64,000 nucleotides of DNA, from the UHGV virus genome UHGV-0180032, one strand, 5' to 3'. Origin of the DNA: a virus. Below are positions 11,035 through 18,113 of the stretch, piece after piece. The translations under genes and the position numbers were made by a program. Position 1 is the first letter of the stretch, and each line of letters opens with the position of its first letter. A model generated the notes under the pieces. That model was not told the DNA's origin, ran no database searches, and was given only the letters and a program-made list of their open reading frames with translations.

Positions 11035-14000
11035 TTAATCGCGAATGATTACCGCCTGCACTTTATTGTTGGTGTCGATAAACGACATTACGCGCTCCTT
11101 GTTAAGATAAGGAGGTATCGGCAACGCAGCATAATCCGCCAGGTTGTTATTAAACTCGGTTGCCACTAACGCATTAAGCGTTTCAGGGTCTGAGCTTGTC
11201 CCGGCCAATTCCACGACGCGTACACGATTTAACGAGGAGTAGTTGCTGATATAATCCAACAGCGTACCGTAGAGTTTATTCCCGGTTATGCTGTCCGCCG
11301 TAGAGCGGATATTGGCACGCACTTCGTCCTCATAAAGTCCCCCTAATCCGTAGTAAATAGGGGTGTACGGATCGTTAACGATAGGCGCGAGGTTGAACCC
11401 GGTTAAACGGTCGGTCAGCGAGATTTTCTGCGTAGTACCACCTGCCGCCGTACAGCTTACGTATTTATCTGCCGCAGACAAATACACCACAATAGTGTAA
11501 ACAGTACCTGCTAAGGTCAGCGTTGCGTTAAACGTTAATTCGTTATTCGCACCACGCGTGTGGGTAAATGTCACATCAGGTTGTAACGTACTCCACGGTG
11601 CTGGGGTAACACGTTTGGTCGGCGTGAAGCCTAACACCACAGATCTCCCGTTACCGAAGTTTAAACCAAACCCGGCGTAACAATACTCACCGTTGCTGTC
11701 AGTTAAACGATAACCACGGGTGATAAGTAACGACAACCGCATAAACTCGTCATCGGTATTTTTCCAGCAACCCAGGATGGTTTCTAGCACCGTACCGGTT
11801 TTTGCGTTGCTTTCGGTTTCCCAACTGACTCGCATCCCCGTATTGTTAAATACTGGGAACAGGTTGTGGATAAACCCGTGAACGTTATCACTTACCCCTT
11901 TCGCATCAAACACCCACTTCGACGCAAGCTGGTCGTATTTCACACCGTCGAGTGCTTTATATCCGCCGCCAACCACATAACGCCAGTCTGCTTCACCACG
12001 CACAACCGCTTGAAGTCCAGAAGCCCAGCAGGGCGCACCTACTGTTAAATTGCTTAACCCCAGCACTGCACGTGAAGCAGAACGCTGAATGTGTGCGTTG
12101 TCATTAGCGACATGGTCTTTCAGCTCACGGAAATCCCCTAACCGTGTCACGTTACGTAGTTCAGTAACGAACACTTCAGAAAGGTCGTTAATACCGATCA
12201 ACCCCACGCGCGTCATGATATCCGTTTCAGCCTGACTGTAGCTGTCGTGAATAATGTACTTCGCTTTGTTATCGACAATGTCAACAAAAATCCCTGCGTA
12301 AACTTCCTTATTCAGATTCGGGAAACGTTCGGTAACGTTAACCGACATCAACGGTACGTTGTACGTTTCACCACCAATGAAATACGTGGAAGCAGGAAGT
12401 GTCACCAGGATTTTGTCTTTAACCGTAACGTCAATTAAGTCGTTACCGGACTTACCAAAGCGAATAATGTCAACTCGCGCACCCGAGTCAACCCCGCCGA
12501 CGGTATTCTCCAGTTTTTCAATCTGGGAAGTCTGCGCCATCACCACACTACTATCGAGTGCTAAAGTGACATCATCCACATCCAGACCGAACTTAATCAG
12601 ACCCCGTTTCGTGGTGTCTGCGTTTTCAACACCGAACACAGAAGACGGGTGTTGGTGAACCTTCGGTGAGTATTTGTCTAACTCAGTCTGCTGTGCAACA
12701 GAAATCGGCAAGTCGAGGTCCGGGGTATTCGCAACATTACCTAAACCAAAGGTAATTTTGTCGATAGTCACCGAACTGGTAAGCTGCATGTCGTTGATAT
12801 ACGACTTGGCAGCAACTAACTTACCGGTAAACTCTGCGTCTAGTTTTTCAATTAACGCGGGTGTAGCTGCAAGGTTTTCAGCCGTACCGAATTCGTCCGT
12901 TAACTGCCAGCAGGCTAACGTTGTGACGTCGTTGGCAACCGGAAGGATAAACGTTGCGACAAACGGTGATGCTTTAATCCCGCTGCCAGTAAGTTCCACG
13001 GTAGACGTCGACGCACCGTAGAACAGACCTGTACCGCCTGCGGTATTACCCGGCAAATACGGACCGACCGTAGTGGGGTCTAAGAGTTTCTTACCACGCC
13101 ACAACAGTCCACGGTCATCGGGGTATAGCACAAGCTGGTTATCGCCTGCCTGTAACGTAACAGGGTTGTTACCCGCATTAACATCGGTGGAGCCTTGACC
13201 GATAAACTTAATGGACTTCGGATCAACGACGAACTGGGCACCTAAACGTTTTTCGTCAACTACACCAGGTGCTTTCTTAATGGTAACCGTGTTACCTTTG
13301 TTTTGCGAACTAATAGAGACGCCGTCAGCAACATTATTGATCAGCGATTTAAAGTGATACCGATTCTCTAATGCTTCTAACGCAGAGTCCATGTTATCGA
13401 AGTTAATCCGGGCGCTATACGTTTTACCGTTTACGGTAATAACGGCGTCAAACACGTTCCCTGTACGCTTCAGTTGAAAACGCAGCGTAAAATCCCCATC
13501 CGGTATTGCTGGATCAGGAGCTTGAGAAATATACCGAACTGACGGTACCGGACTCCCGTAACCGTGCAACGACAGTTCGATAGTAAGAGTACCACCCCAG
13601 ACTTCACCGAAAATCTCTACGTACTTACCGGAGTTACTACCGGGATTTTCGTAGAAACGTAAACCGGCCCTACCGACTGCCTCATTACCAGACGCTGTTT
13701 TACGTCCAGTAACAATAAAGTCAATATCTTGCAGGTTAGCGGGTACCGCATTAAAAGAAGCACTAAATCCATTCTTCGTTCCTGTGTAACGAAGCGCGCC
13801 GTGATACGTGCGGCCTTGACTAACATAGCTTTCGCTAAAATAAGGACTCACGTATTTAGACATCGAAACCGGATCAACTTCTGTCGTGAACGAAGTAAAA
13901 CCGGGCAGCGTTCCAATGGTTCCGTCGGCCGTTTTCGTAGTTGACGTGCGCAGTAGTTTCTTTTGCGCAGCCAATGTTGCTTGCGTTGGATACTTAGCAT

Positions 14001-15357
14001 TAACATAATCTGTTAACTGCGGCTTCGTTTTTCCGTAAGCTAACGCTGTATCCGTCGCAATACCATTCAACTCTAACGCACGGATCGGGCCCCACGTATC
14101 GTTGTGCGGGTTGTCCTTACGTGTAACGTGTTCGTGCGCAGGTGCGTTGCGATAGAGCTGTTCTACTAACTGATGGTACTTAACGATTAGCTGATAAACG
14201 TCATTACTTACGTCTGCTTCTGGCGCACCAGGTAACGCAAGGAATTGAGCGTAATCGTTTTCAGCCGCCCACCAGTTTAAGTTAACGTTGGTTTTGTATT
14301 TCAGCCACTTCGCAACATCCGTTTTGGTGTAACCTGCTGAAAATTCGTCTGGCGGTGTGTCAACGTTAAAGGTGTAGTCCATGGACTGTTTGTTAGTCGT
14401 CACCTCGATAACGTATACACCGTTACCCGGTTGACGAACAACGCTAAACGTTAACTCGCCTTTTAATTCGTCGTCGGTCAAACCGTTGATTAACGTATAA
14501 TCATAATCGGTCGAACCGCTGCCTAACGCAACCGTCAGTCGTAGACCGATTTTACGTTGTTTTAATTGGAGACGAAGGATACTTGCACCACCGTTCGCGT
14601 AGCACAGCATCCAATCGATTTGTTCGTTCGGGTTAATACTCCCCATGTTCGGAAAAATAGCCGGGATACGGTATTTCATCGACAGGGAATATTCATTTAA
14701 CGTGGTGGTTTTGTACGTAACGGAGAAACGACGTTTAGCGGTGTTGTAAGTATACCCACCTTTGTTGTCGTACGTTGCGTACTGTTCAGATGTGATAACC
14801 GTACCATTAGCACGGTGTTCGATATCTAACGTGTTACGTGCAATCGGGTCTACCCGATTCACCACGTTACCTAACGAATCACCTAAGCCTGCAATGGCCT
14901 GCATTAATTCCAGTTCACCTTTCCAGTTTTCCCAGTCGAACTGAATGTCAACCGGTGGAAAGTAAACGTCGCCGATAACGGTATCCCATTGACACGCAGA
15001 CGGGTATTTATCTTTATTGAGTTCGCGTTCTGCGGTAATCTGTTCTTGGGTCGCTTCACCACAACCTACGGCGTGGTAATCTACCGTGAAATTCGATTTG
15101 TATTTGTCGTTAACAATCCAAATCATCCCGTGCACGAGATAGGCTGTGCGCAACATACCGGTCTCGTACGGGTGTGTAATAACGTAATCGTCGCCTAAGG
15201 TCAGTATTTTGCCGCCGCTCTTGACCACCAGGGATGTGGTGAAAAAAGGGGCGTGGGCAGGTACCAACATTCGGTACTTCGTACCAATGACGGCGACCGC
15301 TTCACCGGTTATTTTATTCCCCGGTTCTTTGAAGTGTGGGTCTAGGACGACAGCCAT
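11035..15357 (-). CDS. giant virion fibre/tailspike-like protein (1440 aa)
   Basis: Uninterrupted 4.3-kb ORF, first gene of the minus-strand operon; AGGAG RBS; N-terminal motif (HAPFFTT...GDDYVI) shared with neighbours. Confidence 0.55.
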   Translation of the reverse strand: MAVVLDPHFKEPGNKITGEAVAVIGTKYRMLVPAHAPFFTTSLVVKSGGKILTLGDDYVITHPYETGMLRTAYLVHGMIWIVNDKYKSNFTVDYHAVGCGEATQEQITAERELNKDKYPSACQWDTVIGDVYFPPVDIQFDWENWKGELELMQAIAGLGDSLGNVVNRVDPIARNTLDIEHRANGTVITSEQYATYDNKGGYTYNTAKRRFSVTYKTTTLNEYSLSMKYRIPAIFPNMGSINPNEQIDWMLCYANGGASILRLQLKQRKIGLRLTVALGSGSTDYDYTLINGLTDDELKGELTFSVVRQPGNGVYVIEVTTNKQSMDYTFNVDTPPDEFSAGYTKTDVAKWLKYKTNVNLNWWAAENDYAQFLALPGAPEADVSNDVYQLIVKYHQLVEQLYRNAPAHEHVTRKDNPHNDTWGPIRALELNGIATDTALAYGKTKPQLTDYVNAKYPTQATLAAQKKLLRTSTTKTADGTIGTLPGFTSFTTEVDPVSMSKYVSPYFSESYVSQGRTYHGALRYTGTKNGFSASFNAVPANLQDIDFIVTGRKTASGNEAVGRAGLRFYENPGSNSGKYVEIFGEVWGGTLTIELSLHGYGSPVPSVRYISQAPDPAIPDGDFTLRFQLKRTGNVFDAVITVNGKTYSARINFDNMDSALEALENRYHFKSLINNVADGVSISSQNKGNTVTIKKAPGVVDEKRLGAQFVVDPKSIKFIGQGSTDVNAGNNPVTLQAGDNQLVLYPDDRGLLWRGKKLLDPTTVGPYLPGNTAGGTGLFYGASTSTVELTGSGIKASPFVATFILPVANDVTTLACWQLTDEFGTAENLAATPALIEKLDAEFTGKLVAAKSYINDMQLTSSVTIDKITFGLGNVANTPDLDLPISVAQQTELDKYSPKVHQHPSSVFGVENADTTKRGLIKFGLDVDDVTLALDSSVVMAQTSQIEKLENTVGGVDSGARVDIIRFGKSGNDLIDVTVKDKILVTLPASTYFIGGETYNVPLMSVNVTERFPNLNKEVYAGIFVDIVDNKAKYIIHDSYSQAETDIMTRVGLIGINDLSEVFVTELRNVTRLGDFRELKDHVANDNAHIQRSASRAVLGLSNLTVGAPCWASGLQAVVRGEADWRYVVGGGYKALDGVKYDQLASKWVFDAKGVSDNVHGFIHNLFPVFNNTGMRVSWETESNAKTGTVLETILGCWKNTDDEFMRLSLLITRGYRLTDSNGEYCYAGFGLNFGNGRSVVLGFTPTKRVTPAPWSTLQPDVTFTHTRGANNELTFNATLTLAGTVYTIVVYLSAADKYVSCTAAGGTTQKISLTDRLTGFNLAPIVNDPYTPIYYGLGGLYEDEVRANIRSTADSITGNKLYGTLLDYISNYSSLNRVRVVELAGTSSDPETLNALVATEFNNNLADYAALPIPPYLNKERVMSFIDTNNKVQAVIIRD

Positions 15358-15424
15358 TATCTACTCCTATAGTCCGTGGGCGTCGAGTTCATACTATGAC
15401 TTGAATCTATTGAGGAAAAGAGCT

Positions 15425-16687
15425 GTGACTACTGCTTATCAAGTGCGGCCTGACAGCGCTTTTGGCTTCTCTCGTGAGACCCGTACCTGGGGAGCCATCG
15501 ACGTCACGCAACCCTTAGAAACCTTGTGTTCTGATTACCATATTTTCGAAGTCGGTCTGAGTGCGCTTGGTAGAGACTATACGTTAATTAGCCAATATCA
15601 CCTCGCTGACTTACAAAACCGTACCGATACGTTACAAGACTGGCTGAATGAAAAAGCCGGTGTGGTTATCTCTGCGTTGAAAGACGGTTTACCGACGTTA
15701 GAGTTTGATTGGGCACACTACCAATCGATTAATGCCGATGTTCCAGTAGAAACCTACCTGTGCCCTCCTGGTTATCACTACAGTCAAGAATTCAGTATAG
15801 ACGATGCTGACGACGTTGTGGTGGTGTGTGAAGATAAATGGAAAGACAAGTACCGTAACGGGGTGTTGTACAACATCAACGGACAGTGGGTGCCGCATCA
15901 ATCCGATACTGTTGGTGTACGTTTACCGGGTGCAGGTAAAATAGTACGTCGCGCAGGGACACCGGATATCGGGTGTATGGTCTTTAGTAAATTGGGGAAT
16001 GTTAAAACGTACCCCATTGCTAATTTGACCTTAAACAAACTCGACACCACTCGCGACTATTACTCCACGTTAATGATTTCTTTACCGGAATCTATTACAG
16101 GTAAAACCGTGGGGTTTGTTATCGGGGGATTGATACACTGGTTACCGGTTACTGGGTACTTCTCCGACAAAGCCATTATGGTATCGCTACCGAACTTTGA
16201 CGTTGCGCGTACGGTGTTAGAAACCCGACGTTATTACGACTGGGACAGCATTGGCGTGGGTGATTTGTCATCACCGACCAACGTACAGCGTATCCGTAAC
16301 CCAGAAACGTTAAAGGCGCTTTTAACCCACGAGTCGTCGTTTATCTTTACGGTGGATAATCCGTATCTGGAAGAAGAAGTTGTGGGGGTTTCTCACAACG
16401 CTATCTGGGGGCGTTTATACCTTAAAGATCCTACTGACCCTGATGGGGAAAAACAACTGGGGTATCTGTTAAACCGCTTCGGTAAAACCGTTGCCTATTG
16501 GCCGACGTGGGAAGAAGGAGAATGGGTATTTAACACCACGGAGTTCGACAGTCAAAACTACGTGTTCCGTGAAGCCCGCTGGTATAACCAGAATAAAATT
16601 AACGATGCACAGGCAATCGTAGGGCCTTTCGGTCCCTGGGAAAAAGTCTATTTAGAAATGCATCGTTTCCGTGCAAGAAAAAAATAA
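15425..16687 (+). CDS. hypothetical protein (420 aa)
   Basis: Long ORF; GTG at 15425 preceded by GAGGAAAA is preferred because the ORF-track start at 15209 would overlap the divergent gene ending at 15357; followed by a strong terminator. Confidence 0.5.
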   Translation: MTTAYQVRPDSAFGFSRETRTWGAIDVTQPLETLCSDYHIFEVGLSALGRDYTLISQYHLADLQNRTDTLQDWLNEKAGVVISALKDGLPTLEFDWAHYQSINADVPVETYLCPPGYHYSQEFSIDDADDVVVVCEDKWKDKYRNGVLYNINGQWVPHQSDTVGVRLPGAGKIVRRAGTPDIGCMVFSKLGNVKTYPIANLTLNKLDTTRDYYSTLMISLPESITGKTVGFVIGGLIHWLPVTGYFSDKAIMVSLPNFDVARTVLETRRYYDWDSIGVGDLSSPTNVQRIRNPETLKALLTHESSFIFTVDNPYLEEEVVGVSHNAIWGRLYLKDPTDPDGEKQLGYLLNRFGKTVAYWPTWEEGEWVFNTTEFDSQNYVFREARWYNQNKINDAQAIVGPFGPWEKVYLEMHRFRARKK

Positions 16688-16692
16688 GTAAC

Positions 16693-16734
16693 CTCCTACC
16701 CTCTTAGAGGGTAGGAGTAGCACGTTTTTTTTTT
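16693..16734. terminator. bidirectional intrinsic terminator
   Basis: Stem CTCCTACCCTC/AGGGTAGGAG with TTAG loop followed by T10; sits between convergent gene ends 16687 and 16738. Confidence 0.75.
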
Positions 16735-16737
16735 CAC

Positions 16738-16947
16738 TTAGTCTTTTTTGTAGACGATCGCGTTACCGTGCAGTTTGTTGTTACCGGAAATACCGATAAC
16801 TTTAAACGCTTCACCGCCGATCTTTTCAGCTTCGACAGCCAGCTTAGCAGTAACGTCGTCTACGGTGTCACCGAAAGCGCTTACGTTACCAATTTTCTTG
16901 AACTCTTCAGGAATGTGTTCGGCAGAAGAGAATTCTTTAATAGCCAT
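16738..16947 (-). CDS. BhsA/YdgH-like (DUF1471) small protein lacking a signal peptide
   Basis: 69-aa ORF with GGAGAG RBS; C-terminal ...KVIGISGNNKLHGNAIVYKK resembles the BhsA/YcfR ...SFRITSVTGPNTLHGTAVIYK motif as recalled from memory; no N-terminal hydrophobic leader. Confidence 0.5.
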   Translation of the reverse strand: MAIKEFSSAEHIPEEFKKIGNVSAFGDTVDDVTAKLAVEAEKIGGEAFKVIGISGNNKLHGNAIVYKKD

Positions 16948-17147
16948 AGCTACTCTCCAGTTAAAGAAAGGAAGGACTGTATCGTGTTACAACCAAAGCA
17001 TAAGATAGCTCCTCCCGGAAGGGAGGAGTAGAGTGCGCGAAAAAAGTGGCCTGCTTAACTAAACGACGAGGTTTAAGAAAAGTGTTGATAAGAAGCTTAC
17101 CAACGTCAGGTCACAATATATAATACCAACGTAAGAAAAAGGGGAAA

Positions 17148-18113
17148 TTAGCGCGGGCCTGAAGTTGGACCATGTACACCGTCGTGGATGTGTACGCTGA
17201 AGGTAATACCGGAAATCACCGCATCCTTAACCGTAAAGACACCCACACCTTCACCCGTACCACCGTATTTGAAGTTCTTAGCAACTTCCAAATTACCGGT
17301 GAACATTGCTTCATTACCCTCTTGCTTAAAGTTCGGCGTTTTATACGTTGTGGAACCGGAGGCTTCGGTTAGCCACGTTTCTGTTTTAAAGGTAACCGAT
17401 TTCGACGCTTCGGTATTCCGAACTTCGCATTTCTCATTAATCGTTTTCGTTTCCAGGTTAATCGAACGTTTTGCGTAAATGAACGCATCCTCTTTGTTGA
17501 TGTTCACTTTCGAGAGCATCGCGTTCTCAAAACCTAAATCGTCTTCCACCGAGTTAATGTAATACTTATTCCCTTTATGGTCAACGCACTGCCACGATCC
17601 GTTAGCGTTATCGAATTGGAATAACCACGCCGCTTTCTCCCCGTTCACCATGCTTGTTCTTAGGGTAACGTGTTTGTCAATCGTTGAGACGTTTAACACA
17701 TACGCGTTCGACAAGTCATCCGCCATCTGGTTTTCAGGGTCAGCAGACCACGCGTAAACCGCATCCTCTAATCGCTTAACGTTAGCGAAATTCAAATCAA
17801 TCCAAAAATAAATATCAGTTTGCCCTAGACGTAGCAGAATAACGTAATCTTCACGCTTAACGTCTGGGGAATTAATTCGGTTGGAATTAAACTTCCACCA
17901 CTTTGCAGTAATCGTGTTACCGGTTTTAATCGTTAGGTTGTCGGTAGCACCCCCGGCTTCGTGTACCTTTTCAGCGGTTGAAGAAACGGATTGTACAACG
18001 GTAGGGTTCGCAAAGTTGGTTTCAATGGGAATAACACTCACCCGATCCGTACCACGAGGTTTATCTTCCGCGACGATACCAATCGAGAAAAAGTCAACGC
18101 TGGATTTCTCCAT
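17148..18113 (-). CDS. hypothetical protein (321 aa), possibly virion-associated
   Basis: ORF on the structural-gene strand; C-terminal H-x-H-x-G-x-H-GP motif; no assignable domain. Confidence 0.45.
   Translation of the reverse strand: MEKSSVDFFSIGIVAEDKPRGTDRVSVIPIETNFANPTVVQSVSSTAEKVHEAGGATDNLTIKTGNTITAKWWKFNSNRINSPDVKREDYVILLRLGQTDIYFWIDLNFANVKRLEDAVYAWSADPENQMADDLSNAYVLNVSTIDKHVTLRTSMVNGEKAAWLFQFDNANGSWQCVDHKGNKYYINSVEDDLGFENAMLSKVNINKEDAFIYAKRSINLETKTINEKCEVRNTEASKSVTFKTETWLTEASGSTTYKTPNFKQEGNEAMFTGNLEVAKNFKYGGTGEGVGVFTVKDAVISGITFSVHIHDGVHGPTSGPR

Follow-up and report, generated by a model that had tools for sequence, protein, structure and literature searches.

A leaderless DUF1471 (YdgH/BhsA-like) gene in the tail module of SPN3US-related jumbo phages

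Organization of the locus

The window (the whole 64-kb stretch of phage DNA that was analysed) carries on its minus strand, at positions 16738-16947, an ATG-initiated open reading frame for a protein of 69 amino acids (7.4 kDa, pI 5.6; MAIKEFSSAEHIPEEFKKIGNVSAFGDTVDDVTAKLAVEAEKIGGEAFKVIGISGNNKLHGNAIVYKKD), which is a leaderless member of the DUF1471 (YdgH/BhsA/McbA-like) domain family. A Shine-Dalgarno sequence, GGAG, is read from the sequence on the same strand at 16955-16958, 7 nt 5' of the ATG, and GGAG or GAGG stands at the equivalent position in the DUF1471 loci of related phages. The upstream neighbour (17148-18113, minus strand) encodes a baseplate protein of 321 aa, the homolog of SPN3US gp173; it was matched by phrog_3216 'baseplate assembly protein' with an E-value of 4.9e-112, has tblastn matches in 290 jumbo-phage records, and shares 73% identity with its counterpart in Erwinia phage Stratton and 63-64% with the one in SPN3US. 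The convergent neighbour (15425-16687, plus strand; phrog_3337) encodes a 420-aa homolog of gp171, which is 77-81% identical to gp171 of SPN3US and Asesino; the SPN3US protein is essential and tail-associated (PMC5105663). Most likely this gene starts at GTG 15425 and not at TTG 15209. The TTG frame of the ORF list (15209-16687, 492 aa) overlaps the divergent fibre gene, and the 420-aa form is also found in SPN3US and in gene calls on metagenome contigs. The divergent gene itself (11035-15357, minus strand) encodes a mosaic, fibre or baseplate-like protein of 1440 aa, homologous to SPN3US gp170; gp168-170 of SPN3US form the paralog family C, of fibre or baseplate proteins (PMC5694885).

The convergent DUF1471 gene and gp171 homolog appear to have a common predicted bidirectional terminator at 16678-16734, in which a stem of 11 bp with a 3-nt loop (16693-16717; z-score -4.1 to -4.6 against shuffled sequence) is flanked by an A7 run (16678-16684) and a T10 run (16725-16734). 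The same arrangement of A-run, hairpin and T-run recurs in SPN3US, SPAsTU, Asesino, ChrisDB, Huxley, Stratton, pEa_SNUABM_29, Phobos and CR5. On the other side of the gene, a GC-rich hairpin of 8 bp with a 4-nt loop lies at 17009-17028 (minus strand), between the baseplate gene and the DUF1471 gene; its stem has a z-score of -3.7 to -4.6, and it is a probable terminator or RNA-end structure of the baseplate transcript. Most of the related phage loci read have both hairpins at matching positions, and in several relatives a T-run follows the equivalent of the upstream one. A sequence-only reading of this DNA had described the gene as standing alone, with a bidirectional terminator on one side and a hairpin upstream, and this description is upheld, both hairpins folding far better than shuffled sequence. 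No tRNA was found at the locus, and the search against RNA families gave only a sub-threshold match of the PyrG leader on the terminator hairpin (32 bits versus 65, E 0.09), which was set aside as chance.

The baseplate gene and the DUF1471 gene are separated by a spacer of 200 nt, in which the elements follow in the order of the 8-bp hairpin, a TATG motif, a 51-nt leader and the GGAG. The TATG motif (16999-17002, minus strand; 52-55 nt 5' of the ATG) is a candidate promoter of the phiKZ type, and the G at 16999 would be its putative transcription start site. The late promoters that the non-virion RNA polymerase of phiKZ recognises have TATG as their consensus, and transcription begins at its G (PMC4666361). 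Each of the 14 related loci contains this tetramer, in most cases as TATGC, 41-69 nt 5' of the ATG while its surroundings have diverged, a 4-mer being weak evidence. Furthermore, two adjacent tail genes of the window have ACTATGA or AGTATGA 28-35 nt 5' of their starts. In the literature no transcriptome of SPN3US was found. Judged from the arrangement of these signals, the DUF1471 gene is probably a stand-alone transcription unit expressed late. A near-palindromic sequence, TTCATACTATGAC, was also seen at about 15388-15400, which puts TATG 5' of both divergent genes, the homologs of gp171 and gp170.

Other parts of the same spacer are conserved as well. The segment 17039-17134 (minus strand) contains two blocks whose sequence is retained in 11 of 14 related phages, and the middle of the spacer is variable. 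The first block, TTAC-N13/14-TA(A/T)TGTGAC, lies at about 17134-17110, directly after the stop codon of the baseplate gene, and it might be a second promoter of the phiKZ type, with TTAC standing 5' of a TATG-like start. The second block, CGTCG(C/T)TTG...GCCACTTTTTTC, lies at about 17075-17039, and its 3' part, GCCACTTTTTTC, occupies 17039-17050 (minus strand). Both blocks occur only once in the window, and neither an Rfam match, a tRNA nor a consensus RNA structure was found for them. We considered GCCACTTTTTTC as a repeated regulatory motif and rejected this, its single occurrence in the window not being above chance; a structured small RNA was likewise rejected, for the ends of the block show an apparent covarying pairing, but RNAalifold on 10 phages gave no consensus pairs. 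A sigma-70-like site on the plus strand (17097-17124; TTACCA, 16-nt spacer, TATAAT; 10 of 12 matches) faces the 3' end of the baseplate gene in antisense orientation and overlaps the TTAC...TGTGAC block of the opposite strand; such sites are as numerous in shuffled sequence, and it is probably there by chance.

Domain assignment and absence of a signal peptide

The 69-aa product scores 40.3 bits with the Pfam profile PF07338 (YdgH_BhsA-like), whose gathering score is 27 (E 3.4e-10), residues 17-67 being aligned to profile positions 2-55 of 55, and the DUF1471 signature G..v...G....d....L..kA...Ga..f.v.......N...G.A..Y is retained. The profile of PHROG 8068, the family of SPN3US gp172, was matched by the entire product (E 1.1e-31, residues 1-69 on positions 1-70 of 70). 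Among the NCBIfam models the best is BhsA (NF047859) with 47.4 bits, only the mature part of the model being aligned (positions 30-85 of 85); YbiJ, YahO, McbA and YhcN are the runners-up, every one far below its equivalog cut-off, and these matches are equally restricted to the mature portions of the bacterial proteins. BhsA is the top-scoring named family for all 14 phage copies scanned, with 1.9e-17 as the best E-value among them. YahO was matched by sequence among the PDB entries too (E 0.0015), and the closest bacterial representative is 49% identical over 53 aa. The recognition of a BhsA/YdgH-like (DUF1471) protein in the sequence-only reading is therefore borne out by the PF07338 profile. 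As regards BhsA itself, the part that stands is that the domain is truly BhsA-like with BhsA as its best named family, and the part that does not is identity with BhsA, since the 47.4 bits lie below the curated equivalog cut-off of 90.

Bacterial DUF1471 members are exported proteins, typically periplasmic and made with an N-terminal Sec signal peptide, a segment that is typical of them but lies outside the PF07338 model. In the window the frame is open for just 13 codons 5' of the ATG with no start codon among them, and the maximum hydropathy over 10 N-terminal residues is 0.40, versus about 1.8-3.1 in full-length bacterial relatives. Because the upstream frame is short and without a start, and because the N-terminus is hydrophilic, a signal peptide is not only absent but impossible. 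All 13 relatives read, both cultured and metagenomic, have 67-78 aa and hydrophilic N-termini, and the phage copies read begin with MSIKEF, MKEF or MQQF; in the Derbicus copy the annotated GTG start, which adds 12 hydrophilic residues, is probably mis-called. An exhaustive HMMER profile search over 1.84 billion representative proteins returned 40 matches (a word-indexed protein search, by comparison, returned 4 only). Four phage-type clusters were the only full-length leaderless matches among the 40, and in the full-length bacterial matches listed the alignment begins at about residue 16-63, with a hydrophobic leader in front. Three short leaderless entries with bacterial labels in that scan (P0009, P0021 and P0037) look like fragments or mis-called starts. 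Thus the missing signal peptide, which had been noticed from the letters alone, is confirmed, and the search for an in-frame upstream leader in related phages that had been proposed with it found none, all copies read being leaderless.

The lack of a leader leaves the product no Sec route to the periplasm, and a stress role of the BhsA type is unlikely for this reason. It could be supposed that the infected cell receives from the phage an envelope protein with the stress-induced functions of BhsA (copper, acid, peroxide, biofilm), given that BhsA is the best named family of every phage copy scanned and that several GenBank annotators chose this name. Against this stand the export of the bacterial members, the absence from all phage copies of a signal peptide or of room for one, and the score below the BhsA equivalog cut-off, and we regard such a function as very improbable. 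With BhsA (YcfR) of E. coli and Salmonella and its paralogs YbiJ, McbA, YhcN and YahO the phage product has the domain and the fold in common; unlike them, it corresponds to the mature domain alone, it comes from a gene of a tail module that a phage polymerase probably transcribes, and it is not exported by Sec. A role in a defence system was dropped too, the PADLOC scan having given no match for the gene.

An AlphaFold model of the product (pLDDT 86) consists of two strands, a helix and two strands. The top PDB matches of this model in Foldseek are YdgH (4evu), STM1478, SrfN and STM0082, with YahO further down and RcsF scoring well too. The predicted topology superposes on the solved DUF1471 structures, namely the C-terminal domain of YdgH (4evu), the N-terminal domain of STM1478 (2m2j), SrfN (2ma8), STM0082 (2jna) and YahO (2noc, 2ma4), with query TM-scores of 0.72-0.78. 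These solved members are exported bacterial proteins, unlike the phage product. To our knowledge no ligand has been described for any of the structures, and the fold match consequently transfers no function. RcsF, an outer-membrane lipoprotein sensor (2y1b, 6t1w), gives a query TM-score of 0.84, but it is just 11-14% identical, has no relation to the phage product at the sequence level, and the phage product has no lipobox; on the predicted model, the likeness to RcsF is a resemblance of fold only. The model also resembles a Methanococcus selenium-binding protein and proteins of the DUF74 type.

Distribution, selection and exchange of alleles

With the 69-aa protein as tblastn query, matches of 38-78% identity were obtained in 60 of 50,697 phage records, all of them from 197-251-kb phages of Erwinia, Salmonella, Escherichia, Cronobacter or Proteus, and a bacterial-type DUF1471 query retrieves solely this same phage clade. 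Megablast of the locus against the 50,697 records gave no match, the relatives being visible at the protein level only, and the phage of the window has no close cultured relative at the DNA level. By its relationships at the protein level the window is assigned to the SPN3US/Erskinevirus group of jumbo phages; for one member of the group, Asesino, the formation of a phage nucleus has been demonstrated (PMC11724907).

The gene order gp173, DUF1471, convergent gp171 and fibre paralogs (gp170 onward) was found in 8 syntenic loci and 4 metagenome contigs. Since the neighbours are shared, the window gene is identified as the ortholog of SPN3US gp172 (SPN3US_0172 / YP_009153466, PHROG 8068). Orthologs in Erskinevirus, Machinavirus, Wellingtonvirus, Derbicusvirus and Seoulvirus agree with it in length (67-70 aa), in the leaderless domain and in position, and they have the same terminator and TATG arrangement as the window gene. 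The window copy is only 43% identical to SPN3US gp172, in contrast to 71-78% identity to the Erskinevirus-type alleles of SPAsTU, Asesino and ChrisDB. In three outgroup jumbo phages, the more distant Yong XC32, Deimos-Minion and Kc263, there is no DUF1471 gene beside the baseplate gene, and phiKZ-like phages at greater distance are without it. The occurrence of the baseplate gene in 290 records versus that of DUF1471 in 60, together with these outgroup junctions, argues for a clade-specific insertion at the convergent junction.

Two Wellingtonvirus loci deviate from this order: the baseplate gene is kept, and a second DUF1471 gene is located downstream instead. The second gene (Wellington gp189, L012:987-1547; pEa_SNUABM_11, L016:1005-1571) encodes a leaderless protein of 186-188 aa, with an N-terminal DUF1471 domain (29.5-29.7 bits) followed by an acidic low-complexity tail of about 120 aa, and the first copy of these phages has a short acidic C-terminal extension. 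No second DUF1471 copy was found in the 64-kb window.

The gene has not escaped earlier annotators. The records of Stratton, Kwan and Wellington name it 'putative multiple stress resistance protein BhsA', that of SPAsTU has 'bhsA', and the RefSeq entries of SPN3US and pEa_SNUABM_43 are labelled 'DUF1471 domain-containing protein'; in the literature no discussion of DUF1471 or BhsA in jumbo phages was found. The sequence-only reading had regarded the capture of a host stress protein by a phage as unusual. This can no longer be maintained, for the gene is old, clade-wide and syntenic, is present in 60 phage records, constitutes PHROG 8068 and was already annotated.

The gene is under purifying selection: dN/dS is 0.048 against a 91%-identical metagenomic allele, and 0.03-0.23 in other pairs without heavy saturation. 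The identical 69-aa protein turns up in 1,836 indexed blocks of a public assembly collection, from which it follows that this uncultured jumbo phage is widespread in public data; the protein is often found there on contigs of about 220 kb, for example in ERZ808024, SRR1535309 and ERZ10551944. A small frame to which no function is assigned could in principle be a chance ORF or the remnant of a decaying gene, but the Pfam and PHROG matches, the low dN/dS, the retention in 60 genomes, the peptides seen for the SPN3US ortholog and the exact protein in all these assembly blocks make this extremely improbable.

As regards the origin of the gene, the ancestor of the clade most likely acquired the domain from an enterobacterial host in a single event. 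This proposal of a single ancient capture is derived from the shared locus and the shared leaderless N-terminus and not from the tree. In a neighbour-joining tree of 54 columns the 17 phage sequences group together, a single long-branch bacterial sequence falling among them, and strict monophyly of the phage copies has a bootstrap support of 10 out of 100.

The alleles have a history that differs from that of their flanks. In SPAsTU gp173 and gp171 are nearest to those of SPN3US (75% and 84.5%), whereas its DUF1471 protein is 90% identical to the Asesino copy versus 43% to the SPN3US copy, and the SPN3US-type allele is about equally distant (43-48%) from all others. Such a pattern suggests either cassette-like exchange or accelerated divergence. 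The disagreement between the SPAsTU allele and its flanks argues against tight co-adaptation with the neighbouring genes, and since the allele of a Salmonella phage, SPAsTU, is 90% like that of an Erwinia phage, Asesino, the allele does not track the host genus.

Particle association and possible roles

The SPN3US ortholog has been detected in published proteomic studies. In CsCl-purified wild-type virions gp172 was identified by 4 unique peptides (6 spectra, 81% coverage) and was described as the smallest protein of the virion; it was absent in the 47(am1) mutant, was not marked 'Head' in the table, and its status was left unresolved by the authors (Ali et al. 2017, PMC5694885). Reilly et al. 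(2020) classified gp172 as 'Tail' by its absence from tailless heads (PMC7411985 Table S2). In the same table it has 6 spectra in the wild type, 3 in am59-supD, 0 in purified tailed particles (am59-supF), 2 in 'Heads' (am59-supF), 0 in the lower band of a CsCl step gradient (am59-sup0-SB) and 13 in a crude particle preparation from infected cells that had passed through differential centrifugation only; furthermore it has 0 in three gradient-purified preparations rich in free tails, where gp170, gp171 and gp173 are abundant (PMC7411985 Table S2). The triplicate trypsin and chymotrypsin tables of 2023 have no row for gp172, and they do list gp171, gp173 and even 'non-virion' proteins with 2-3 spectra (PMC10052503). 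In wild-type virions the spectral count per mass is 0.86 for gp172, 1.08 for gp168 and 1.41 for gp169. The inconsistent detection across these studies indicates that the protein is made and that its association with the particle is weak or variable. The link to the tail would otherwise be only positional, since the position would survive by vertical descent whatever the function.

Our tentative preference, held with somewhat less than even confidence, is that the gene encodes a late, soluble accessory protein of the tail module which is weakly associated with the particle, and not a periplasmic stress protein. According to this proposal a DUF1471 domain of an enterobacterial host would have been inserted, in the manner of a moron, at a terminator junction in the tail module. 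The gene would be transcribed together with the tail genes, probably by the non-virion RNA polymerase of the phage, and the product would be translated in the cytoplasm and stay soluble there. It might then serve as an accessory factor of the baseplate/fibre complex, either by helping its assembly or by riding weakly and sub-stoichiometrically on the tail; if some copies travel on the particle, a normally Sec-exported domain would have a way to meet the outer membrane of the next host. T4 gp57A is an example of a small helper encoded in a tail module. Like the phage DUF1471 product it is small, soluble and encoded among fibre and baseplate genes, and the two have no relation in sequence or fold.

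The same particle data bear on the idea that the product is a stable structural protein, displayed on the baseplate or the fibres and contacting the outer membrane of the next host through lipopolysaccharide, outer-membrane proteins or BamA-type partners. The 'Tail' classification, the spectral count per mass, which is similar to that of gp168 and gp169, the location within the baseplate/fibre module and the likeness of the fold to RcsF, which binds BamA and outer-membrane proteins, would agree with it. The absence of spectra from the three tail-rich purified preparations and from the purified tailed particles, as well as from the 2023 tables, speaks against it, and no relative of the product was found among the phage-particle entries of the PDB; we therefore consider a stably displayed protein unlikely.

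A further explanation, which we rate as rather unlikely and yet as the most serious competitor of the accessory tail-module protein, is a moron with a host-directed role apart from the tail, the signal in particle preparations being carry-over. The soluble cytoplasmic domain would bind a host molecule (for instance the precursor or partner of an envelope protein, or a metal); in a variant of this explanation it would act on neighbouring cells after lysis. The gene brings a promoter-like motif and a terminator of its own to a convergent junction where outgroups carry no such gene, its alleles were exchanged independently of the flanking genes, the spectral count of gp172 is highest in the crudest preparation with none in the best-purified ones, and the fold resembles the Methanococcus selenium-binding protein and DUF74-type proteins as well. 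Carry-over is at odds with the 81% coverage in CsCl-purified wild-type virions, the TATG-type upstream motif is common to the adjacent tail genes, and the allele does not follow the host genus. We know of no cytoplasmic partner of any DUF1471 protein, which we also count against such a role. As a stand-alone unit at a junction empty in outgroup phages the gene does resemble morons; classical morons, unlike this gene, belong to temperate phages and use host promoters.

A more far-reaching idea, to which we give only a small probability, is that the host envelope domain is a particle-borne cargo, held loosely on the baseplate or fibres, that arrives at the outer membrane or in the periplasm of the next host without Sec and engages a partner of the DUF1471/RcsF-like kind there. 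If this were true, the cargo protein would aid adsorption or penetration, or blunt envelope-stress signalling.

Few envelope proteins of Enterobacterales are as strongly induced by stress as those of the DUF1471 family, and we know of no molecular partner of the latter. A leaderless copy that has long been kept in one clade of nucleus-forming jumbo phages is a natural experiment in this respect, and the binding target of the phage copy, be it tail proteins, lipopolysaccharide, outer-membrane proteins or a metal, could reveal the function of the domain in bacteria. To phage biology the locus offers a clear case of a lytic jumbo phage with a host domain inserted as a separate unit among its tail genes.

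Public records already contain the family, its position and its annotation as DUF1471/BhsA, and what the window contributes is a new allele, which is no more than 78% identical to the alleles of cultured phages. The gp170 homolog of the window is composed of parts with different affinities. Its first 494 aa are 67% identical to SPN3US gp170 and 47% to the proteins of Asesino and SPAsTU; an extra stretch of about 135 aa follows (residues about 495-628), with no counterpart in SPN3US, Asesino or SPAsTU, and the C-terminal part is nearer to Asesino (53% versus 42%).
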